Source: Candidatus Magasanikbacteria bacterium CG_4_10_14_0_2_um_filter_33_14
GTDB taxonomy: Bacteria; Patescibacteriota; Patescibacteriia; Magasanikbacterales; UBA922
Direction of reading: 5' to 3'
NCBI GenBank assembly: GCA_002793035.1
Contig: PFPL01000033.1
Location: forward strand, 1 to 58,853
Length of the DNA stretch: 58,853 bases
This document shows positions 43,003 through 58,853 of the stretch, piece by piece. A model generated the notes under the pieces. That model ran no database searches and had not been told where the DNA came from. It saw nothing but the letters and a program-made list of their open reading frames with translations. A program made the position numbers and the translations under genes. The stretch's first letter is position 1. Every line of letters starts with the position of its first letter.

Positions 43003-44529
43003 ATGTTTAAAAAAATATTTTTATTTTTAGCTGTAGTTTTTTATTCTTTTTTTCCATTTATTACCTCTGCCCAAAATGTAGAGGATCTTGTGGTTGAAGG
43101 AAATTATTCAGCTGTTATTTTTTCTGAAGATTATGTACAAGTTGGTAAAAAAATAATCTTTGATTCTAGTAAATCAAGTTTGCCAACTACTGTAAAAAAT
43201 GCTGTTTATTATTGGAGATTTGGTGATGGTTCCTATGAATATGCTGATGAAGTAGTACATGACTATAAAAAGGTTGGGACGTACAAAGTTAATTTGGACA
43301 TTTCTTATATAAATGAACAAGGACAGAAAAAAACTCTTTCTAGTGAAAAGTCTGTTTTTGTTTATGATACAAGAGCTCTCATGATTGTAGATGAAAAAAG
43401 TCAGTCTGATATTGCTATGATGAAAGATCAAGCTAGAAATGAAGGAGTTGCTTTGGAAGTTTTATCACCTGTAGAAGATATGGGATTTTTTTCAGAAGAT
43501 GTTTTGATAAAGCTTATTAGTGAACATAATCAGTATGTAAAAAATTCTGATTTGATTTTATTTTATACTAAGTCACTTCGTGGTTTACAAGCTTTTACTC
43601 AATATTTTCAATCTTTAAATGATGTTGATAAAGAATTGATAAAGAATAAAATGTTTATTACCTTTACAGAAGGGAATATTGATGTAGTTACTCATGGTGT
43701 TTATCAAAATTATCAAATAATAAAACCTGAGTATATTTTACTCACCAGACCAGAAGCCTTGAGTGTTGTCTTGAATGCCAAAGATATTAGTGAAATAGAA
43801 ACTTCACTTTTTGGTAGAGGTATCGAGCTTAAAAAAGTTGATAATACAAGTGGCAAAAGTAAATTTTATATATTGTCTACTTTAGTTAATTATTTTATAG
43901 AAAAGGGTGTGCCTGCTGATAGTGTTTATCTTATTTTGATTATTCCTTTCTTGGCTTTTGTTATTATCTTTTTTAGAAATGTCGTGGGTATCAATACTTT
44001 TGGAGTATTTACACCTATTATTGTTACTATAGCTTTTTATACTTTAGGTCTTTATTTGGGATTACTGACTTTCTTTTTTGCTGTTATTGTAAGCCAAATT
44101 ATGAAGTATGCTTTTGAAAAAATAGAACTTTTGTATTTGTCCAAGGTAGCTTTGAATTTGTCTTTCATTTCTATTTCCTTTTTGTTTTTGATTGCTATAA
44201 TTTTGAAATTTAATTTAGCATTTTCTTTGACTGGAGCTATATTTCCAATGTTAGTGATGACTACACTTTCAGAAAAATTTATGGAAGCAAAATCTGAAAT
44301 AGGACTTAAGACTGCTTTATTTGGAGTCTTTGAGACTTTGTTTGTGGTTTTGTTATCTTATTATTTTATACTTTGGTCAAGTTTCAACAATTTGCTAATA
44401 TCTTGGCCAGAAATTATTATAACACCTATTCTTGCTATCTTAATACTTGGTAAATTTACAGGTTTACGTATTAGTGAGTATATTAGATTTAGAAGTTTAT
44501 TTGTAAATCATACAGGAGAAGAAGAATAA
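43003..44529 (+). CDS. signal peptide, PKD-like ectodomain and 7TM (7TM_transglut/UUP1-like) membrane protein
   Basis: YYWRFGDGSYEYADEVVHDYKKVGTYKVNLDIS is a PKD signature. The C-terminal half has seven hydrophobic helices beginning GINTFGVFTPIIVTIAFYTLGL, as in the 7TM modules that pair with RimK-related ATP-grasp genes. Confidence 0.65.
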   Translation: MFKKIFLFLAVVFYSFFPFITSAQNVEDLVVEGNYSAVIFSEDYVQVGKKIIFDSSKSSLPTTVKNAVYYWRFGDGSYEYADEVVHDYKKVGTYKVNLDISYINEQGQKKTLSSEKSVFVYDTRALMIVDEKSQSDIAMMKDQARNEGVALEVLSPVEDMGFFSEDVLIKLISEHNQYVKNSDLILFYTKSLRGLQAFTQYFQSLNDVDKELIKNKMFITFTEGNIDVVTHGVYQNYQIIKPEYILLTRPEALSVVLNAKDISEIETSLFGRGIELKKVDNTSGKSKFYILSTLVNYFIEKGVPADSVYLILIIPFLAFVIIFFRNVVGINTFGVFTPIIVTIAFYTLGLYLGLLTFFFAVIVSQIMKYAFEKIELLYLSKVALNLSFISISFLFLIAIILKFNLAFSLTGAIFPMLVMTTLSEKFMEAKSEIGLKTALFGVFETLFVVLLSYYFILWSSFNNLLISWPEIIITPILAILILGKFTGLRISEYIRFRSLFVNHTGEEE

Positions 44530-44533
44530 ATTT

Positions 44534-46882
44534 ATGAAATTTTTTGAAAGAGCAAATGCTATTTTGGGGATGAATGCTCGTAATTTATTGTATATCGGGC
44601 GTTATAATACCAAACAAAGTAAAAAATTTGCTGATGACAAAATTTATACAAAAAGTTTTTTGATGACTCGTGGAGTAGGCGTGGCAAAAATTTATAATAC
44701 TATAAAAAGACATAAAGAACTTTCAGATATCAATCCCAAAAGTTTACCTGCTAGTTTTGTTATAAAACCTAATCATGGTTTTGGTGGTGAAGGTATTATT
44801 GTGATTAGTGAACACAAAGGATTGAAATTCAAAGATGTCATTGGCAATCAGTATAATTGGCGTGATTTGTATTTGCACATGGTTTCTATTTTAGATGGTA
44901 AGTATTCAATATCAGGTTTATCTGATCAAATAATTATAGAGGAGATGCTAAGACCACATAAAGATTTGTTACCTTTTTCTGAAGTTGGTTTGCCGGATAT
45001 TAGAGTTATTGTTTTCAATTATGTTCCTATAATGGCTATGTTGCGTCTACCTACCTTTGAGTCTCATGGTAAGGCAAATTTGCATTTAGGTGGTGTTGGA
45101 GTAGGAATAGACATTGCTACTGGTAAAGCTAATTTTGCTGTACATCATAATAAATTTATAAAAAAATTACCAAATGGAGAAAAAATAAGAAATATTCAGC
45201 TACCTTTGTGGGATGATATTTTGATTATGGCTTCAAAAGCTCAAAAAGCTAGTCAGGTAAAATTTTTGGCAGTAGATTTGGTACTTAGTAAAACTGGTGT
45301 AAATATTCTTGAACTAAATGCTAGAGCAGGTTTGGGTATTCAAATTGCTAATCAGATACCATTACAGCATAGATTAAGGAAGGTTGAAGATTTGAAAGTT
45401 TCTAGTTCTGAAAAAGGTGTAGAAATAAGTAAAGCACTTTTTAGTGCTGTAACAAAAAAACCAGAAAAGAAAGGTAAAAACAAATTGGAAAAAAAAGTTA
45501 TTGGTATTTTCGAAGAAATAGATATTTTGAATACTCCAAATACTTCTGTTTTGACAAAAATAGATCCACATGGTAATGAAGTATTGTATGATGAAACATT
45601 GCCAGGTATTGACAAACTCAAGCGATATTCTGATATTTTGATCAGAGGTGAAAGAATACGTTTTCATTTCAAAAAGGCTGATTTATCAGCTAGCCCTTAT
45701 AAAGTAGTGATTGGTGGTAAAGCTTTAAATAATTTTTTTATTGATCCAAATCAAAAAGATATTGTAAATTCCAATGAAAAAAATTCAGAAAGTATTAGCG
45801 AAAAAATTATAAAAAATATAGATAAAAAACTTTATTTTACCGATAAGGAATTAAAAATTTTGTCTCATATAAAACCTTTGAATTTCTTGGAAGAAAAAAA
45901 TAAATTTTTGGCTACAAAAGATTTTTCACCTAAGTTTATTTACAAAAAACCAGACATGAATTTCACTGGACTTTTGCGTGATATTAGTGCTTTGCCAAAA
46001 AATGTGAATCACCCTCTTTATCCTTTGTTTATAAAAAAAATAGATGAGATGATCTCAAAGATTCAACTTTTGGATTCTGTGGGGACAGATGAATATAGTG
46101 AATCATCTGAAGAATTGTATGGTAATGTAAGTGATGAATTGTTTGAAAAAGCAAAACAATTTATAATTGATAATCCTGTAAAAGAGGATAATAGTAAGGA
46201 AATGACTGCCAAAATTATTTTCAAACATTTTGAATATTTTTTAGAGATAAATAGATTAAATGATTGGAAAGTGAAATTGTCAGAAACAGCACAATCTATA
46301 TCAGTAGATCCTTATAAGAAAACAATTTATATAAATAAAAAATCTAAGAGAAGTAAAAACAAACTCAAAGCTCTTTTGATACATGAGATTGGGACTCATA
46401 TTTATCGTTATGGTAATGGTACTTTACAAGATTACAGAATTTTTAAGAGAGGTACTGCTGGGTACTTGGATACTGAAGAGGGGTTGGCTATTTATAATCA
46501 AAGAGAATTGGGGCTAAATTTAGGTATGAAAGATTTGTGGCCTGCTTATTTGATAGTGGCTATTTATCATGCTAGGACTATGTCTTTTTTGGATTTGTTT
46601 CATTATTTGCAAAAAGAATACAATCTAAAAGATAGCAAGGCTTGGTCTGCTTGTTATCGTGCTAAGAGAGGTTTGTCTGATACTTCTCAACTAGGAGGTT
46701 CTACTCGTGACGCTATTTATTTTAGAGGTTATTTAAAAGTAGTAGATTTCTTATCAGAAGATAAAGAACAAAGATTAAAAGATTTGTATAGTGGAAAGAT
46801 ATGTATTGAAGATATTAAATATTTAGAATACTTATCAAAACCAAAGATAAAATATTTTGGTTTTGAAAATTTTGATTTTTAG
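44534..46882 (+). CDS. fusion of alpha-L-glutamate-ligase-like ATP-grasp and DUF1704 (QEGLA-motif, HExxH) peptidase-like domain
   Basis: N-terminus AILGMNARNLLYIGRYNTKQSKKFADDKIYTKSFL...VIKPNHGFGGEGIIV...LELNARAGLGIQIAN is RimK-related ATP-grasp. The C-terminus has LLIHEIGTHIYRYGNG (HExxH) and GYLDTEEGLAIYNQ (QEGLA-type motif). Confidence 0.75.
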   Translation: MKFFERANAILGMNARNLLYIGRYNTKQSKKFADDKIYTKSFLMTRGVGVAKIYNTIKRHKELSDINPKSLPASFVIKPNHGFGGEGIIVISEHKGLKFKDVIGNQYNWRDLYLHMVSILDGKYSISGLSDQIIIEEMLRPHKDLLPFSEVGLPDIRVIVFNYVPIMAMLRLPTFESHGKANLHLGGVGVGIDIATGKANFAVHHNKFIKKLPNGEKIRNIQLPLWDDILIMASKAQKASQVKFLAVDLVLSKTGVNILELNARAGLGIQIANQIPLQHRLRKVEDLKVSSSEKGVEISKALFSAVTKKPEKKGKNKLEKKVIGIFEEIDILNTPNTSVLTKIDPHGNEVLYDETLPGIDKLKRYSDILIRGERIRFHFKKADLSASPYKVVIGGKALNNFFIDPNQKDIVNSNEKNSESISEKIIKNIDKKLYFTDKELKILSHIKPLNFLEEKNKFLATKDFSPKFIYKKPDMNFTGLLRDISALPKNVNHPLYPLFIKKIDEMISKIQLLDSVGTDEYSESSEELYGNVSDELFEKAKQFIIDNPVKEDNSKEMTAKIIFKHFEYFLEINRLNDWKVKLSETAQSISVDPYKKTIYINKKSKRSKNKLKALLIHEIGTHIYRYGNGTLQDYRIFKRGTAGYLDTEEGLAIYNQRELGLNLGMKDLWPAYLIVAIYHARTMSFLDLFHYLQKEYNLKDSKAWSACYRAKRGLSDTSQLGGSTRDAIYFRGYLKVVDFLSEDKEQRLKDLYSGKICIEDIKYLEYLSKPKIKYFGFENFDF

Positions 46883-51929: not shown

Positions 51930-53000
51930 TTATTTCTTAGGTTTATTATGTTTAATTTTTTTCTTTACGTTTTTTTCGAGTTGTACAAAACGATCAAAAT
52001 CACTTGCAAATAATCGATCTTGTACGATGCGATACTTTTCAAATTCAGATTCGGCAAATTCTTTTGCAAGTTCGCGGGTGACTTTTCCTGCATCGGAAAG
52101 TACCTCTCGATCGGTCATCTGGATAAATCGATCAAGTCTTTCTGCCCAATCTGTCATGGTCATGGGGATGTGACGTGTTGCCATATCTTCTGCAAGATCC
52201 AAGTATGCAGAAACCATGCGTTCAAGAGAAAAAAGTTCTGTCTCTGTGAGATAATTTTTTGCCACGGAAACATCAAATTTTTGAATCTTCCCATCTGGAG
52301 CATCTGTCCAACTCGTAAGTCCCATATTGTCCTTTTCAGCGTTTGCTCGTGATACTATGACTTCAGCAGCTGTTTGTCCATGAATAGCCCAATGTAGTTT
52401 ATTTTGCACTATGGCAAAGAATTGTTTTGTCGTTTCGGCTTTCTGATCATAATCAATCGCCGTAGTATAAATGTCGGTTATTTTTTGATAAAATTTTCTC
52501 TCTGACAACCTAATTTCTCTTATACGGGAGAGTAATTCTTCAAAAAATTGTTCGGTAAGTATTGTCCCTCCATGTTTCAAGCGTTCATCATCCATGACAA
52601 ATCCCTTGATAGTAAATTCTTTGATAATTTCTCCTGCCCATTTGCGAAACTGAACAGCCCGTTCATTATTTACCTTAAAACCTATAGCTGTAATCGCATG
52701 CAGGTTATAGTGTTGGACGTTGTAATTTTTGCCATCTGAAGCAGTTATCCGGAATTTCCGGATAACTGAATCTTTATCTAATTCATTATCTTGAAATATA
52801 TTCAGGAGATGTTCATTTATTGTTCTGACATCTACTCCGTAGAGTGTAGCTATCAATTTTTGTGTGAGCCACAAGTTTTCATCTTCATATCGCAGTTCGA
52901 CCGCAGTTTCTTGTCCGCCAATAGCCGATACATAGGAAAGATACTCTGCTGCTGATGAACGAATGGTAATATTTTTTGTTTTTTTATTGGGTTTTGTCAT
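51930..53000 (-). CDS. RhuM-family (virulence-protein-like) protein
   Basis: IRSSAAEYLSYVSAIGGQETAVELRYEDENLWLTQKLIATLYGVDVRTINEHL...NLHAITAIGFKVNNERAVQFRKWA is the conserved RhuM N-terminal region. G+C is visibly higher than in neighbours. Confidence 0.8.
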   Translation of the reverse strand: MTKPNKKTKNITIRSSAAEYLSYVSAIGGQETAVELRYEDENLWLTQKLIATLYGVDVRTINEHLLNIFQDNELDKDSVIRKFRITASDGKNYNVQHYNLHAITAIGFKVNNERAVQFRKWAGEIIKEFTIKGFVMDDERLKHGGTILTEQFFEELLSRIREIRLSERKFYQKITDIYTTAIDYDQKAETTKQFFAIVQNKLHWAIHGQTAAEVIVSRANAEKDNMGLTSWTDAPDGKIQKFDVSVAKNYLTETELFSLERMVSAYLDLAEDMATRHIPMTMTDWAERLDRFIQMTDREVLSDAGKVTRELAKEFAESEFEKYRIVQDRLFASDFDRFVQLEKNVKKKIKHNKPKK

Positions 53001-53142: not shown

Positions 53143-53592
53143 TCAAATCTTTTTCTCCAGCACAATCTGATCATCCCAACCTTCTACTCTAGCTTTTTTG
53201 TAGAGTATTCTTTCAAAGCCGTTTTTGTAATAAAAAGAGCGAGTTCTTTTATAAGGCTCATAATCATCTTCATCTGGCAAAGTTTCTACTTCAATTGAGG
53301 TAAAACCTAATTTTTTACTTTCATTTTCTAGCCACTTCAACAATTGTTGTCCGATACCTTTTCTTTGTTTTTCTTTTTTTATACCCATCCACATTAATAA
53401 CATTTTTCCACAATAGGATGTATAACATAGGAATCCCAAAACCTTTTTGTCTTCTTTTGCTACGACCACACTGTTCAATTCGAAATCAATCTTCATGTTT
53501 TTTAATCCTTCTTCATTGAACCAATCTTTTAGATCACTAGCTATTTTTAGGGCTTCTTTTTTGTCATTTTTTGTTGCTTTGGTTATTTTCAT
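53143..53592 (-). CDS. GNAT family N-acetyltransferase
   Basis: Acetyl-CoA motif A KKEKQRKGIGQQLLKWLENESKKLG (Q/R-x-x-G-x-G/A), then YYKNGFE. Confidence 0.88.
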   Translation of the reverse strand: MKITKATKNDKKEALKIASDLKDWFNEEGLKNMKIDFELNSVVVAKEDKKVLGFLCYTSYCGKMLLMWMGIKKEKQRKGIGQQLLKWLENESKKLGFTSIEVETLPDEDDYEPYKRTRSFYYKNGFERILYKKARVEGWDDQIVLEKKI

Positions 53593-53776: not shown

Positions 53777-56700
53777 TTAATTTACGATTAGTCTACAAAA
53801 TTTTATATAACGATCAAATAAAGAAAGACACATATTTTTATCTTCTATAACTTCGTATGATTTTATAATATTTTGGAATCCACCATGTCCGCTATTTTTA
53901 AATAAATAGTTTAATGCTTCTTGTCTTGTATTTATGTCTTTTAGAGCAATTGCAAGTGGTAAATGAAAATATTTAGAATTGCTTGTCCAAAAATCTGTGT
54001 GAGGAAAATTGTTTTTCAATAAGTAATCTAAAAGTAATTTAAGATTTTTATTTATTTCAAAAGTTTTCTGTATAAGAATTTCCCATGATCTATAAGTTTT
54101 TAATATAATTCCATTATTATAGTTATCTAATTTTTTATATTTACCCGTTATTTGCATTGATGTTTTGCAAGCTTTAACCTCCTTTATAAATTGTTCTTCT
54201 GAAATATTTCTTTTTTTCTTTAAATAAGAATTCTCATCGGTATTTTGTTTATCAAATTCTAAATTAAAAAGTTTATTGTATTTTTTGCATAATTTCTGAA
54301 AGCGTAGTTTTTCATTTCCAAAATCATCATCTCTAAGATAATAATCTATTTGTTGTTTTTGAATTTCTTCGATTTGTTTGTATGATTTTTGAAAAGCCTC
54401 TTTTTGCTCTTCTTCTGTGTATAGATTTGATTCTGTAATTTCAAGGTAAATTATAAATTTCTGTTCATAGTAATCTGATCTAGGTTTACCTTCATGCCCA
54501 TAATCTTTTCTATACTCACTCATCTCTTCCTCTATTTTTTCTACTTCTACTCCATTTTTTACTTTTGCTTTTAAAATAGATGTAATGACTTGATTTGAAA
54601 AATTATGATAACCCTTAGCCTCAATTAATTCTTTTTTAAATTGTTCTGCAAGTTCAATATTTGTGTTTGCAATAATTTCAATCACCAAATAGGGACCTCT
54701 CCATGTATGATCCCCGTCAGTAATTTGAACAACATGCATTGTTAGATCAAAAACTTCTCTCGCATAACTTTCTTTTTTCTTATTATCCACCCAGTTGTTT
54801 CTCCAAATCACTTCAAATGCATCAGTCAATAAATAACTCACGATTGTATCTTTGTGCCAACCATGTCTCAAAATTCCTTCTAAAACTGCTTTTGTGAAAT
54901 AATATTTAGCTAGTTCTTGATCAATTTTTGAGAAAAACATACTGAGATCAAAACATCTATCAACATAAGAAGGAAAATCATCGTCCCAATTTGATAATTG
55001 ATCTTCAATTAATGTTAAATCATTTTTACTTACTATTTTGGAAAATCTACTTGGAATAATACGGTTGAGTTGCAAGAAAAAACTAAACGGAATAATATTA
55101 TTTTCTTCCTTAATTAATATTTTTTTTAGTTGTAATAGTTTTTCGTCATCCTTTTCAAGAGAAAATATATTAGCCCAAAAAAATGACATATCAACCTTTA
55201 GGTATTTTCCATAATATGTTCCTTCAAAATAAAAATTGATGTAACGAATATAATCTCTCACAATTGATTCAATCTCTTTTTCTCCCTTCAATAGTGAAAT
55301 AAAATCATTAAATAATGCAGAATATAATCCAAGCTCATTATAGTAACGAAATGGGTGTCCATCTTGTTTTTTTAAAAACTTCTCAAAGGAAAATGTATCA
55401 AGTATGTATGAAACAATGGCAAAATCTCTATTTTTCTTGTTGTGAGTTAAGTCAAAGTGATCCGCATTTTTTAGTTTTTCAAACACTGGATTTACGGCTT
55501 CCTTCTCCTTTTTTGATAGCTTTATATTAAAATATCTTTTGTAAAAAAGAATAAATACATTTCTTTCGTTAATTTCTTGAGAAAACTCGTTGATAAACGA
55601 TTTGATTTTTTTATGTATGGATTTTGATTGTGCAAAAATTGGCAAATATTCAATAGATTTGAAAATTTCTAAAAGTGCCACAAATTCATATTCATCAAAA
55701 TCATCTATCAGCTTATAAAAATCATTTCTTTTTTCTTTTAAACAAACACGAAAAAATGATTTTACTAACTTTTCTTTTCCATCTTCCTTGTAGCTCCAGT
55801 CATTACTATTAGAAAAATTTTTATAATTTTCTCTAACTAAACTATCAAAAAGATCTTTTACTGTTTCATTTTTTATTACCAATCTATAATAAATCCAGTT
55901 TTCAAACTGGTTCCAAAATGGATCTTCTAATCGGTCATTTTCTTTAAGATTCTCACTAAATTTGTATTGGTCATACAAATTCATGATATTTTGTAGTTGT
56001 TGTCTGAATTCTTTTGCAATCTCTGTATTGTCTGATTTCCATAATAAAACAACGATCTCTATTAGAGAAGCAACTCCATTACCCCAAACACTTTTTAAAT
56101 AATCATTTGAACGATAATCGTTTTTGTCTTTGTTCCATTTTTCAAACTTTTTTTCCAATTCTTGAAAATCAATAGATATTTTTTCGTTAATTTGTAAATT
56201 TTCGTTTTCAAACAATTCATTAAAAATACTTTTATCTTGCGCAACTAATGCAGGAATGAATTCGCTTGAATTCATGTAATAATCATCATCAACTCCAAAC
56301 CCTTTGTGTTTGCCTAAATAAACATCTATAAGATTTAATTCAACTAATCCAGGAAGATTATTTTCTTTCTCGTATTCCTTTCTAAGGTATGGACGAAAAA
56401 GATTTTCAAGATACTCACGATTAGAAAGTATTTTTAATTCTCTGATAATGCTGGGATTTTTCTCATATTCACTTTTGAGTTTCTGAGTAAAAAAATATTC
56501 TTGGTATCTTCTATGCTGATAAATATATGATGTTTTTAATTCCGAGCTCGTAGCATATGAATTTTCAAAGAATAAATCAGCAAGATAGCTAATAATGGAA
56601 TTTGTGGCTTCATAGTCTAAACGATCAAATCTATTAAGAATAATTTTTTGAAGTTCATCTTGTGAAAAACGAAATTGAAACTTCTTGTGAAATTCAAATG

Positions 56701-58021
56701 ATATGTCTTGATTTAATCTTAAAATCTGCTCTTTCTTTGTATTTAACAAATTAAGATGTTCAATATTCTTTCTATGATTTGGATCATCTAAAAGTAAATC
56801 TATTTTCTTGTTTAAAAGATCGAGTATAGTGCTAGATTCATTCAATTCTTCTATTGTATCCCATAATAATTTAACAAGTAATATATCTCCGATTTCCTGA
56901 ACAATAGATTGATTATATTTTTTAAGTGTTTTTAATTTATCTTGCTTGGATTTGTCGTTTTTTTTTGAAAAGTAATCATTTATATACTTTTCCTCTAAAT
57001 TTGATATTTGGTACTCAATAATATCGTTGAAATAGGTTTTTGCCATTATTTTATTGAGATTACCGGAACGACAAGAAATTATAATTATTTTTGTGTTAGC
57101 TTTTTGACTAAGCTCAAACATTTGAAATAAAACATTGTCTGCAATTTTCTCATCCAATTCGTCAAGTCCATCAAAAAGGTAAATAAACCCTAATTCCTGA
57201 CTATTAACTTTAGAGTCGTTCTTTCTGCCTCTAATAATATTTTCTAATGAATCATTTATGCAATTTTTGAGATTTATTAAAACAGGCACAGCACTATTGT
57301 CTGTCAAAACTTTAACCATTTCATCTTCCTTTTTCTTATCTAGCCCCCCAAAAACCTCTAAAAGTTTGTGCATAAAAATACTTTTACCGGTTCCTGGATT
57401 CCCTGTTAATAGGAATACTTTTTTCGTTTCATTATTTAAAACTTCATTCGAAACAGTAACTTTTTCTTTTTTATCATTTACACAAGGAAGATCTAGATAT
57501 TCTTGAGATTGAATAAAAGTTAAAAGTTTTGGACTAACACTATTCTTTATAAAACCAAGCTCATCTCCAATTCCAAAATAAAGTTGGGCTAAATCTAAAT
57601 TTGAAGGTTGAGATAATTTTAAGAGAATATCCTTGTCAGTCATATATTCTATTTCTGTTTTTTGCTTTTCAGCATCTTTGTCTATATCAGTTTCATAGTT
57701 TGTTTTTTTACTACCATTTTTTGTTCTATCTTTATTGGAATAAACAAAAATTTTATCCAAATCAGGATAAAGCCTTAACCCCTTAAGAATAGAGGATTTA
57801 ACTTGTTTCCAATCAAATTTACTATCAAAAAACTTCGCTTGAAATCCATATTTTTTGCTATTAGCTTCGAATGGTTCTGTTTCAATTCCTGGCTGATTTT
57901 GATAAGAATCAATTTTTGTAATTTTTAATTCTCTGCAACACAAAAACATACAAAGATCTTCAAACGATTTTTGTTTACTTTCTCCTTTAAGTCCAAATGT
58001 ATTCCAGTCAATTTGTTGCAT
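53777..58021 (-). CDS. 1414-aa NACHT/STAND P-loop NTPase with N-terminal PD-(D/E)xK-like module and long helical C-terminal arm
   Basis: Walker A LLTGNPGTGKS (aa 204-214, nt 57380-57412), NACHT-type Walker B FIYLFDGLDELDE (aa 279-291) and IIIISCRS (aa 312-319). N-terminus FEDLC...GIETEPFE...YGFQAKFF. About 1000 aa of K/E/N/Y-rich helical sequence follow. Confidence 0.8.
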   Translation of the reverse strand: MQQIDWNTFGLKGESKQKSFEDLCMFLCCRELKITKIDSYQNQPGIETEPFEANSKKYGFQAKFFDSKFDWKQVKSSILKGLRLYPDLDKIFVYSNKDRTKNGSKKTNYETDIDKDAEKQKTEIEYMTDKDILLKLSQPSNLDLAQLYFGIGDELGFIKNSVSPKLLTFIQSQEYLDLPCVNDKKEKVTVSNEVLNNETKKVFLLTGNPGTGKSIFMHKLLEVFGGLDKKKEDEMVKVLTDNSAVPVLINLKNCINDSLENIIRGRKNDSKVNSQELGFIYLFDGLDELDEKIADNVLFQMFELSQKANTKIIIISCRSGNLNKIMAKTYFNDIIEYQISNLEEKYINDYFSKKNDKSKQDKLKTLKKYNQSIVQEIGDILLVKLLWDTIEELNESSTILDLLNKKIDLLLDDPNHRKNIEHLNLLNTKKEQILRLNQDISFEFHKKFQFRFSQDELQKIILNRFDRLDYEATNSIISYLADLFFENSYATSSELKTSYIYQHRRYQEYFFTQKLKSEYEKNPSIIRELKILSNREYLENLFRPYLRKEYEKENNLPGLVELNLIDVYLGKHKGFGVDDDYYMNSSEFIPALVAQDKSIFNELFENENLQINEKISIDFQELEKKFEKWNKDKNDYRSNDYLKSVWGNGVASLIEIVVLLWKSDNTEIAKEFRQQLQNIMNLYDQYKFSENLKENDRLEDPFWNQFENWIYYRLVIKNETVKDLFDSLVRENYKNFSNSNDWSYKEDGKEKLVKSFFRVCLKEKRNDFYKLIDDFDEYEFVALLEIFKSIEYLPIFAQSKSIHKKIKSFINEFSQEINERNVFILFYKRYFNIKLSKKEKEAVNPVFEKLKNADHFDLTHNKKNRDFAIVSYILDTFSFEKFLKKQDGHPFRYYNELGLYSALFNDFISLLKGEKEIESIVRDYIRYINFYFEGTYYGKYLKVDMSFFWANIFSLEKDDEKLLQLKKILIKEENNIIPFSFFLQLNRIIPSRFSKIVSKNDLTLIEDQLSNWDDDFPSYVDRCFDLSMFFSKIDQELAKYYFTKAVLEGILRHGWHKDTIVSYLLTDAFEVIWRNNWVDNKKKESYAREVFDLTMHVVQITDGDHTWRGPYLVIEIIANTNIELAEQFKKELIEAKGYHNFSNQVITSILKAKVKNGVEVEKIEEEMSEYRKDYGHEGKPRSDYYEQKFIIYLEITESNLYTEEEQKEAFQKSYKQIEEIQKQQIDYYLRDDDFGNEKLRFQKLCKKYNKLFNLEFDKQNTDENSYLKKKRNISEEQFIKEVKACKTSMQITGKYKKLDNYNNGIILKTYRSWEILIQKTFEINKNLKLLLDYLLKNNFPHTDFWTSNSKYFHLPLAIALKDINTRQEALNYLFKNSGHGGFQNIIKSYEVIEDKNMCLSLFDRYIKFCRLIVN

Positions 58022-58339: not shown

Positions 58340-58853
58340 ATGACTTTTCTTCAATCTATTGTTTTGGGTATTATCCAAGGACTTACCGAATTTTTACCAG
58401 TATCTTCTTCTGCTCATTTAATCTTTTTACCTCGTTTTTTTTCTTGGGGAGAACATGATATTGCTTTTGATATAATGCTTCACTTCGGTACATTGTTTGC
58501 TGTAGTATTTTATTTTCGCAAAAAATTGTGGAAGTTGTTCTTAGCTTTTTTCAATTATCGAAAAGATGTTTCGGTGGAAGTGAAATCTAACAAGAGATTA
58601 GCTTGGCTGATTGCCTTTAGTATTATTCCTGCTGGACTTGTCGGCTTCTTCTTTTCTGATTTGATTGAAAATACTTTTCGCTCATCGTCTTTCATGGCTT
58701 TCAACCTTATTTTCTGGGGTGTTGTCTTGTTTGTAGCAGATAGATTTAGCAAAAGACAACAGAGCTTGAAAACTCTGGAAAATATTTCTTGGAAAAACAA
58801 CTTTTTTATCGCTTGTGCTCAAGCCTTGGCGCTTATCCCTGGTACTTCTAGAT
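58340..58853 (+). CDS. uppP: undecaprenyl-diphosphate phosphatase (3'-partial, runs off the window)
   Basis: My translation is MTFLQSIVLGIIQGLTEFLPVSSSAHLIFLPRFFSWGEHDIAFDIMLHFGTLFAVVFYFRKKLWK. It contains the BacA/UppP signature GLTEFLPVSSSAHL. It is absent from the ORF track because no stop is reached. Confidence 0.92.
   Translation, partial: MTFLQSIVLGIIQGLTEFLPVSSSAHLIFLPRFFSWGEHDIAFDIMLHFGTLFAVVFYFRKKLWKLFLAFFNYRKDVSVEVKSNKRLAWLIAFSIIPAGLVGFFFSDLIENTFRSSSFMAFNLIFWGVVLFVADRFSKRQQSLKTLENISWKNNFFIACAQALALIPGTSR

Follow-up and report, generated by a model that had tools for sequence, protein, structure and literature searches.

A nuclease-NACHT-helical protein of Candidatus Magasanikbacteria: a candidate member of the Avs/bNACHT class of antiphage proteins

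The window analyzed here, i.e., the whole stretch of 58,853 nucleotides formed by contig PFPL01000033.1 of Candidatus Magasanikbacteria bacterium CG_4_10_14_0_2_um_filter_33_14, harbours on its minus strand a gene for a large STAND NTPase composed of an N-terminal Mrr-like nuclease, a NACHT module and a long helical C-terminal region. An earlier note on this DNA had reported a 4.2-kb open reading frame (ORF) on the minority strand and proposed an antiphage sensor similar to nucleotide-binding leucine-rich repeat (NLR) proteins. The ORF is present in the ORF list of the window at 53777..58021 (-), starts with ATG and runs uninterrupted over 1414 amino acids (aa). It represents a real gene, since 1414 codons in DNA of 27 % GC are far above chance and more than 160 homologues span the full length, the most distant of them with 18 % identity. 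The identical protein is present on 22 metagenome contigs. Nearly all other long ORFs of the window are encoded on the plus strand; beyond 28 kb of the window, the only long minus-strand ORFs lacking a longer overlapping plus-strand ORF are the STAND gene and its two downstream neighbours. The GC skew changes its sign at ~52 kb. Residue conservation refers to 165 full-length homologues sharing 18-95 % identity with the query, the nuclease columns being counted over 162 of them. The gene and its features are as follows:

53777..58021, minus strand: whole gene, encoding nuclease, NACHT module and helical sensor, stop codon included (ORF list, full-length homologues)
57527..58021, minus strand: Avs4-type Mrr-like PD-(D/E)xK nuclease effector domain, aa 1-165 (PADLOC, NCBIfam and PDB profile matches)
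57881..57883, minus strand: E47, predicted metal-binding acidic residue (conservation, alignment with E49 of EcAvs4 8DGF)
57833..57841, minus strand: Q61-A-K63, (D/E/Q)xK element (conservation, alignment with Q63-S-K65 of EcAvs4 8DGF)
56942..57436, minus strand: NACHT nucleotide-binding domain, aa 196-360 (Pfam NACHT match, Foldseek matches to NLRC4 and NLRP3)
57380..57412, minus strand: Walker A, LLTGNPGTGKS, aa 204-214 (conservation of K213)
57149..57187, minus strand: Walker B, FIYLFDGLDELDE, aa 279-291; D284-G-L-D-E288 forms the D[GAS]hDE signature (residue conservation)
57068..57076, minus strand: S316-C-R318, where the IIIISCRS strand ends, with R318 as predicted sensor-1 arginine (conservation of R318, structure model)
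56432..56941, minus strand: helical and winged-helix domains, aa 361-530 (helix/strand pattern of the structure model, extent of Foldseek matches)
56501-56515, minus strand: conserved motif H503-R-R-Y-Q507 (conservation of H503)
53780..56431, minus strand: family-specific all-alpha solenoid, presumed sensor, aa 531-1414 (structure model, Foldseek, conserved patches)
54848-54868, minus strand: RHGWxKD patch, aa 1052-1058 (near-invariant in homologues)
54713-54721, minus strand: TDG patch, aa 1101-1103 (near-invariant in homologues)
53876-53890, minus strand: GHGGF patch, aa 1378-1382 (near-invariant in homologues)

Domain modules and conserved residues

Profile and alignment evidence shows that aa 1-165 form a homologue of the EcAvs4 Mrr-like nuclease. 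The N-terminal module is matched by the PADLOC Avs4 model (E=2e-31; 6.7e-29 on the segment aa 1-180) and by NCBIfam NF041815 (E=7e-33 to 3e-31), EcAvs4 (8DGF, aa 1-248) is the sole match of the family profile among PDB sequences (E=1.3e-33), and the hidden Markov model (HMM) of the family nuclease matches plasmid EcAvs4 with E=1e-36. The PADLOC Avs2 models match aa 1-180 more weakly (E=1.8e-11). Thus, the restriction-endonuclease-fold head suspected in the earlier note is specifically an Avs4/Avs2-type Mrr-like domain. The motifs named for it are present (FEDLC, aa 20-24; GIETEPFE, aa 45-52; YGFQAKFF, aa 58-65), the spacer between the latter two comprising 5 residues (ANSKK) instead of the claimed 10. 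In the 8DGF alignment, E21, E47, Q61 and K63 are paired with E22, E49, Q63 and K65 of EcAvs4. From the proposed catalytic residues, E47 (162/162 homologues), Q61 (160/162) and K63 (161/162) are retained, while E49 is variable (105/162); E21 constitutes an additional conserved acidic residue of this domain. A Q63A/K65A variant of EcAvs4 is said to be nuclease-dead.

The P-loop module following the nuclease belongs to the NACHT clade and differs from the Avs4 NTPase. Walker A and Walker B are located at the positions given by the earlier note, and the IIIISCRS strand described to follow Walker B spans aa 312-319. Walker A conforms to GxxxxGK[ST] (GNPGTGKS, aa 207-214), and D284-G-L-D-E288 of Walker B conforms to D[GAS]hDE, the NACHT-diagnostic signature defined in the preprint of Kibby et al. 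Residues K213, D284, D287, E288 and R318 are each invariant (165/165), G285 of Walker B is kept in 161/165 and H503, within YxHRRYQEYF, in 163/165 homologues. R318, which terminates a strand (residues 310-318) in the AlphaFold2 (AF2) model, may act as sensor 1, and H503 is a candidate equivalent of H443 in NLRC4. With the AF2 model of aa 1-620 (mean predicted local distance difference test, pLDDT, 83), the best overall Foldseek match was EcAvs4 (E=1.6e-17), and NLRC4 (4KXF) and NLRP3 (7ALV) were matched with E-values of 1.5e-10 to 5e-10 over 400-530 columns. Matches to Avs4 do not extend past the Walker A loop: only aa 1-248 of EcAvs4 are covered by the family HMM, and the NF041815 equivalog model scores 113 bits versus a cut-off of 1500, aligning at model positions 1-226 only. 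Assignment as an Avs4 orthologue was rejected on account of this low equivalog score and the different NTPase. The NACHT/STAND P-loop claimed previously is borne out by Pfam, Foldseek and signature as NACHT-clade, rather than housekeeping AAA+ or ABC.

The C-terminal region (aa 531-1414) yielded no match in Pfam, PADLOC (including the Avs1-3 HMMs), NCBIfam or PDB sequences, and up to E=10 the sensor profile retrieved nothing but noise from the PDB sequences. With AF2, aa 561-1414 were modelled confidently (pLDDT 89) as entirely alpha-helical with 47 helices, in agreement with the helical arm without a nameable family described beforehand. Foldseek comparison of this model with the PDB revealed two standout matches, both of them chains of terminase-bound SeAvs3 (8DGC; E=3.8e-5 and 5.7e-4, probability 1.00, template modelling (TM) score 0.39-0.40, root mean square deviation (rmsd) 14 Å, 10 % identity); the remaining matches were generic HEAT/ARM solenoids with E of 1e-2 or worse, and EcAvs4 (8DGF) was not matched. 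The modelled resemblance to SeAvs3 may serve as a weak lead, not as an identification. Accordingly, the proposed novelty of the sensor holds with respect to sequence relatives, but a sensor entirely without relatives is not what the structural comparison indicates.

Among 1.84 billion representative proteins, the sensor profile detected 185 clusters only. The long sensor-bearing representatives comprise 1140-1490 aa, with the sensor extending from about residue 550 to the C-terminus. All 52 of them carry the family NACHT module and 49 the nuclease as detected by the respective HMMs; two of the three without a nuclease match are N-terminally truncated. Thus, the three modules form one fixed architecture, and no effector swapping was seen. 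The patches RHGWxKD, TDG and GHGGF, embedded in an otherwise fast-evolving helical sensor, are unusual for a pure repeat scaffold; these polar patches could mark a ligand site or an autoinhibitory contact with the NACHT module.

Distribution and genomic context

Full-length homologues occur in Bacillota (Bacillus, Priestia, Neobacillus, Clostridium), Bacteroidota (Flavobacterium, Chryseobacterium, Lacibacter) and Proteobacteria (Colwellia), and also in Acidobacteriota, Oligoflexia and Ignavibacteria; those of the cultivable genera Bacillus and Priestia share 50-56 % identity with the window protein. Within the Candidate Phyla Radiation (CPR), homologues are found in Peribacteria, Saccharibacteria, Kaiserbacteria, Wolfebacteria and Gracilibacteria besides Magasanikbacteria, i.e., in at least six CPR lineages. 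A metagenome-assembled genome (MAG) of a Methanomassiliicoccales archaeon encodes a homologue with 27 % identity that spans query residues 1-1414 (L042:8001-11984), suggesting that the complete gene with its three modules has been transferred between domains of life, as far as the MAG binning is correct. The closest relatives (L013, CAZAKN010000017.1, 85 % identity; P0121, MDY0143607.1, at least 90 %) are labelled 'uncultured Gammaproteobacteria' and 'Bacteroidales', respectively. As their contigs are just 6-7 kb long, the labels probably stem from faulty binning or, if not, from a very recent transfer.

One homologue (P0020, L052:6001-10281, JGI 3300029449), sharing 58 % identity with the window protein, originates from a CPR lineage using genetic code 25. 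In-frame TGA codons number 48 in its gene, as against 13 GGN codons, and 33 of the TGAs fall on columns with glycine as the family majority, which indicates that the host reads UGA as glycine and that the gene has evolved in place for a long time. The database version of this protein wrongly gives W at the TGA positions. Since this homologue rules out contamination as the cause of the CPR occurrences and since the glycyl-tRNA synthetase (GlyRS) of the window clusters at >=90 % identity with Magasanikbacteria proteins, contamination or mis-binning behind the CPR assignment was rejected. The CPR-like host assumed in the earlier note is thereby specified, the window GlyRS sharing its 90 %-identity cluster with proteins from MAGs assigned to Candidatus Magasanikbacteria.

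The distribution was analyzed with 31 loci of full- or part-length homologues from many phyla. An all-against-all comparison of the flanking ORFs from ~30 independent loci did not reveal a conserved neighbour. Among the products of the two nearest genes on either side are type I restriction enzymes and McrBC, paired AbiE proteins, DNA methylases, resolvases and a phage capsid protein, and individual loci additionally contain integrases, relaxase/MobC, HigB, HEPN_Apea, SNIPE/T5orf172 proteins and phage remnants. The sole recurring neighbour type is type I restriction-modification (RM), present at 3-4 loci. This setting agrees with the variable islands that had been predicted, as the neighbours at ~30 loci include mobile and defence genes, none of them conserved and none forming a housekeeping operon. 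The family is patchily distributed in mobile and defence contexts. Searches of PLSDB plasmids by tblastn (retrieving only the Avs4 N-terminus, 26 % identity) and of phage genomes detected no family member.

Four of the loci (L030 and L039 from Chloracidobacterium MAGs, L017, L025) have a large upstream protein in common, apparently the R subunit of a type I restriction enzyme; in the neighbour set, this upstream family is matched by Pfam T1R_D3-like and ResIII as well as by PADLOC REase_I.

In the window itself, the STAND gene is accompanied by the following genes:

53143..53592, minus strand: GNAT acetyltransferase gene, 149 aa, downstream of the STAND gene (Pfam Acetyltransf_1)
51930..53000, minus strand: RhuM-family gene, 356 aa, downstream of the STAND gene (Pfam Virulence_RhuM)
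58340..58853, plus strand: 5' part of bacA (undecaprenyl-diphosphatase), divergent, bounding the three-gene block (read from the sequence; BacA Pfam match on the full gene in L001)

The gene order is the same on every contig with the identical protein, namely bacA and gpsA on one side, STAND, GNAT and RhuM genes on the opposite strand, and an amino-acid permease gene on the other side. Strains of the same population without the STAND gene, sought via the GNAT neighbour, were not found, the arrangement being identical on all contigs. Repeats (direct or inverted) flanking the three-gene block amounted to AT-rich chance matches only, promoter-like sites occurred at the level expected from shuffled sequence, and a convincing terminator for the STAND gene was not found. 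At a distance from this block (43003-46882, plus strand), a PKD/7TM-transglutaminase-like gene (508 aa) adjoins an ATP-grasp TupA-like/MATCAP gene (782 aa); this pair, named by Pfam matches of the identical L001 genes, is reminiscent of a module for peptide modification or conflict.

Comparison with known systems and proposed function

The architecture resembles that of several characterized STAND proteins to different extents. (i) With EcAvs4 (8DGF, NF041815) the family shares the homologous nuclease (E ~1e-33, aligned E/Q/K residues) and the order of nuclease, STAND NTPase and long helical sensor on a single polypeptide. However, the Walker B of Avs4 reads DSAEK in place of the NACHT-type D[GAS]hDE, and the sensor has neither a sequence nor a fold match to the portal sensor of Avs4. 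(ii) The Mrr-carrying Avs2 proteins have the effector alone in common with the family, as no Avs2 model matches its NTPase or sensor, while the N-terminal nuclease is recognized by the PADLOC Avs2 models; KpAvs2 has been described as comprising an Mrr endonuclease, a STAND module and a long sensor (PMC11564622). (iii) SeAvs3 (8DGC, with a terminase sensor) has the same tripartite logic and is the sole solved structure with a specifically, though weakly (TM score 0.39), similar sensor arm, whereas its NTPase is a non-NACHT STAND module and sequence similarity to the family is absent. The nuclease of Avs3 is of the Cap4 type. (iv) bNACHT25 and bNACHT32 (E. coli bNACHT clade 6) likewise combine a PD-(D/E)xK DNase, a NACHT module (Walker B: DxxDE) and a C-terminal domain of helical structure, and their nuclease is needed for antiphage function (PMC12169576). 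The bNACHT25 nuclease is, however, of another subtype that does not align to that of the family, and in the compared part (first 399 aa of bNACHT25; its NCH1 sensor lies outside) hhalign connects only the stretch between the two Walker motifs (probability 62 %), BLASTP being not significant. For this compared part, a close relationship to bNACHT25 was rejected, as the nuclease does not align. (v) NLRC4 and NLRP3 share the NACHT fold, a Walker B of the D[GAS]hDE type and a conserved winged-helix histidine, but carry a CARD or PYD adaptor instead of an enzyme and leucine-rich repeats instead of an alpha-solenoid, at 12-15 % identity.

The module identities, residue conservation, fixed architecture and genomic context shown above favour, with a probability of roughly 0.78, a stand-alone bacterial NLR-like protein of the Avs/bNACHT class, in which solenoid-triggered oligomerization would activate a non-specific DNase and lead to abortive infection. 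By analogy to EcAvs4 and SeAvs3, the C-terminal alpha-solenoid would hold the NACHT NTPase as an autoinhibited monomer until the solenoid meets an infection cue, for which a conserved phage protein, bound directly, is the likeliest candidate. ATP binding and oligomerization of the NACHT module would follow and unite the N-terminal Avs4-type Mrr-like nuclease domains into active units; these would degrade DNA non-specifically, such that phage replication stops and the cell is lost. Avs3 and Avs4 are known as phage-activated, non-specific DNA endonucleases (PMC11564622), and many STAND families directly sense core phage proteins (PMC13581612). Antiphage activity itself may likewise be presumed.

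Several points weigh against this assignment. The immediate flanks in this genome are housekeeping genes (bacA, gpsA, amino-acid permease), and no recognized defence system was seen next to the STAND gene in this genome. The GC content at third codon positions (GC3) is 0.20 as in the host genes, thus providing no compositional sign of recent transfer; base composition was in general rejected as transfer evidence, the low GC of the gene (26.9 %) being due to amino-acid composition. The Pfam NACHT match (PF05729, aa 202-353) reaches 21.9 bits with the full-length protein and 25.7 bits on the segment, both below the gathering threshold of 26.7. This score marks a divergent, near-threshold member and not a different fold; many homologues carry a precomputed PF05729 match. 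Moreover, some NACHT proteins, such as bNACHT25, sense the perturbation of a host factor and not a bound phage protein (PMC12169576). Finally, the structural likeness to the known sensor of SeAvs3, with a TM score of 0.39, is too weak to reveal a trigger.

The nature of the trigger is the point at which two other explanations diverge from direct binding of a conserved phage protein in general. The solenoid could be a divergent Avs1-3 sensor that binds the large terminase subunit of the phage, as the standout PDB match of its model is terminase-bound SeAvs3. This is unlikely in view of the low TM score, large rmsd and 10 % identity of that match, the lack of PADLOC Avs1-3 and PDB sequence matches for the sensor, and the fact that big solenoids often match by general geometry alone. 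Alternatively, the same effector and switch could be controlled by a sensor guarding a host factor (e.g., a chaperone or translation factor) that is perturbed by the phage. Precedents are bNACHT25, which as a PD-(D/E)xK-NACHT-helical protein requires host DnaJ (PMC12169576), and Avs7, which incorporates EF-Tu (PMC13581612); moreover, the invariance of RHGWxKD, TDG and GHGGF from CPR bacteria to archaea would fit a universal cellular ligand no less than one from a phage. Nevertheless, similarity of the family to the compared part of bNACHT25 is not detectable beyond Walker A to Walker B, most characterized Avs families bind phage proteins directly, and a host factor would need extreme conservation to be shared by CPR bacteria, Bacillus and a methanogen-related archaeon, rendering a guard rather improbable.

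Two further possibilities concern the system as a whole. The common strand of STAND, GNAT and RhuM genes, the short gaps between them (142-184 bp) and their constant co-occurrence in contigs of this organism could suggest that the STAND protein functions only together with the other two. Since the contigs with the trio belong to one near-identical population, this co-occurrence is uninformative, and none of ~30 other, independent loci has a GNAT or RhuM gene beside the family member, the pairing with RhuM being confined to contigs of this organism. GNAT and RhuM are thus neighbours rather than components, and a three-gene operon system, very unlikely on these grounds, was rejected. A non-immune STAND protein (regulator, DNA-repair or maintenance factor) or a catalytically dead nuclease would agree with the housekeeping flanks and with the many STAND clades not involved in defence (PMC13581612). 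Yet the Pfam scan revealed no DNA-binding regulator domain, the catalytic residues of nuclease and NTPase are nearly invariant, the effector type is otherwise seen in Avs2/Avs4 defence proteins, and the patchily distributed homologues adjoin integrases and genes for RM, abortive infection (Abi) and toxin-antitoxin systems, so that such a role appears hardly credible.

Within the favoured NLR-like antiphage function, it may tentatively be proposed, at somewhat less than even odds, that the proteins constitute a distinct Avs/bNACHT family, with a clade-specific sensor whose interface lies outside the solved Avs structures, and that this abortive-infection NLR has long been retained by ultra-small CPR episymbionts, among them lineages with UGA as a glycine codon. 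Neither the searched supplements to the preprint by Kibby et al. nor a full-text literature search yielded any of six accessions of the family. The catalogue of Lee et al. 2026 comprises 589 STAND clades and 684 sensor clusters (PMC13581612), and it has probably captured the family in uncharacterized form, since the survey was seeded with Mrr-type effectors and GenBank proteins.

Implications for CPR bacteria and the family

The family is an uncharacterized one of the already known Avs/bNACHT kind and leaves the concept of bacterial NLR immunity unchanged; noteworthy are its occurrence in CPR bacteria, the homologue using genetic code 25 and the pairing of an Avs4-type nuclease head with a switch of the NACHT clade. 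The latter exemplifies module shuffling, as an Avs4/Avs2-type nuclease head is mounted on a NACHT-clade switch in place of the Avs4-type switch.

CPR genomes comprise ~1 Mb and contain few defence systems each (PMC12259885). In this small genome, 4.2 kb are given to a single NLR-like gene. Together with the occurrence in at least six CPR lineages and the homologue from a UGA-glycine host, this suggests that abortive immunity of the pattern-recognition type would be kept even in such reduced cells. The cultivable Bacillus and Priestia homologues make trigger and mechanism directly testable, with results transferable to CPR biology. Phages of CPR bacteria are poorly known, and if the family indeed proves to be distinct and retained by CPR bacteria, its sensor would offer a route to the conserved proteins of these largely unknown phages.

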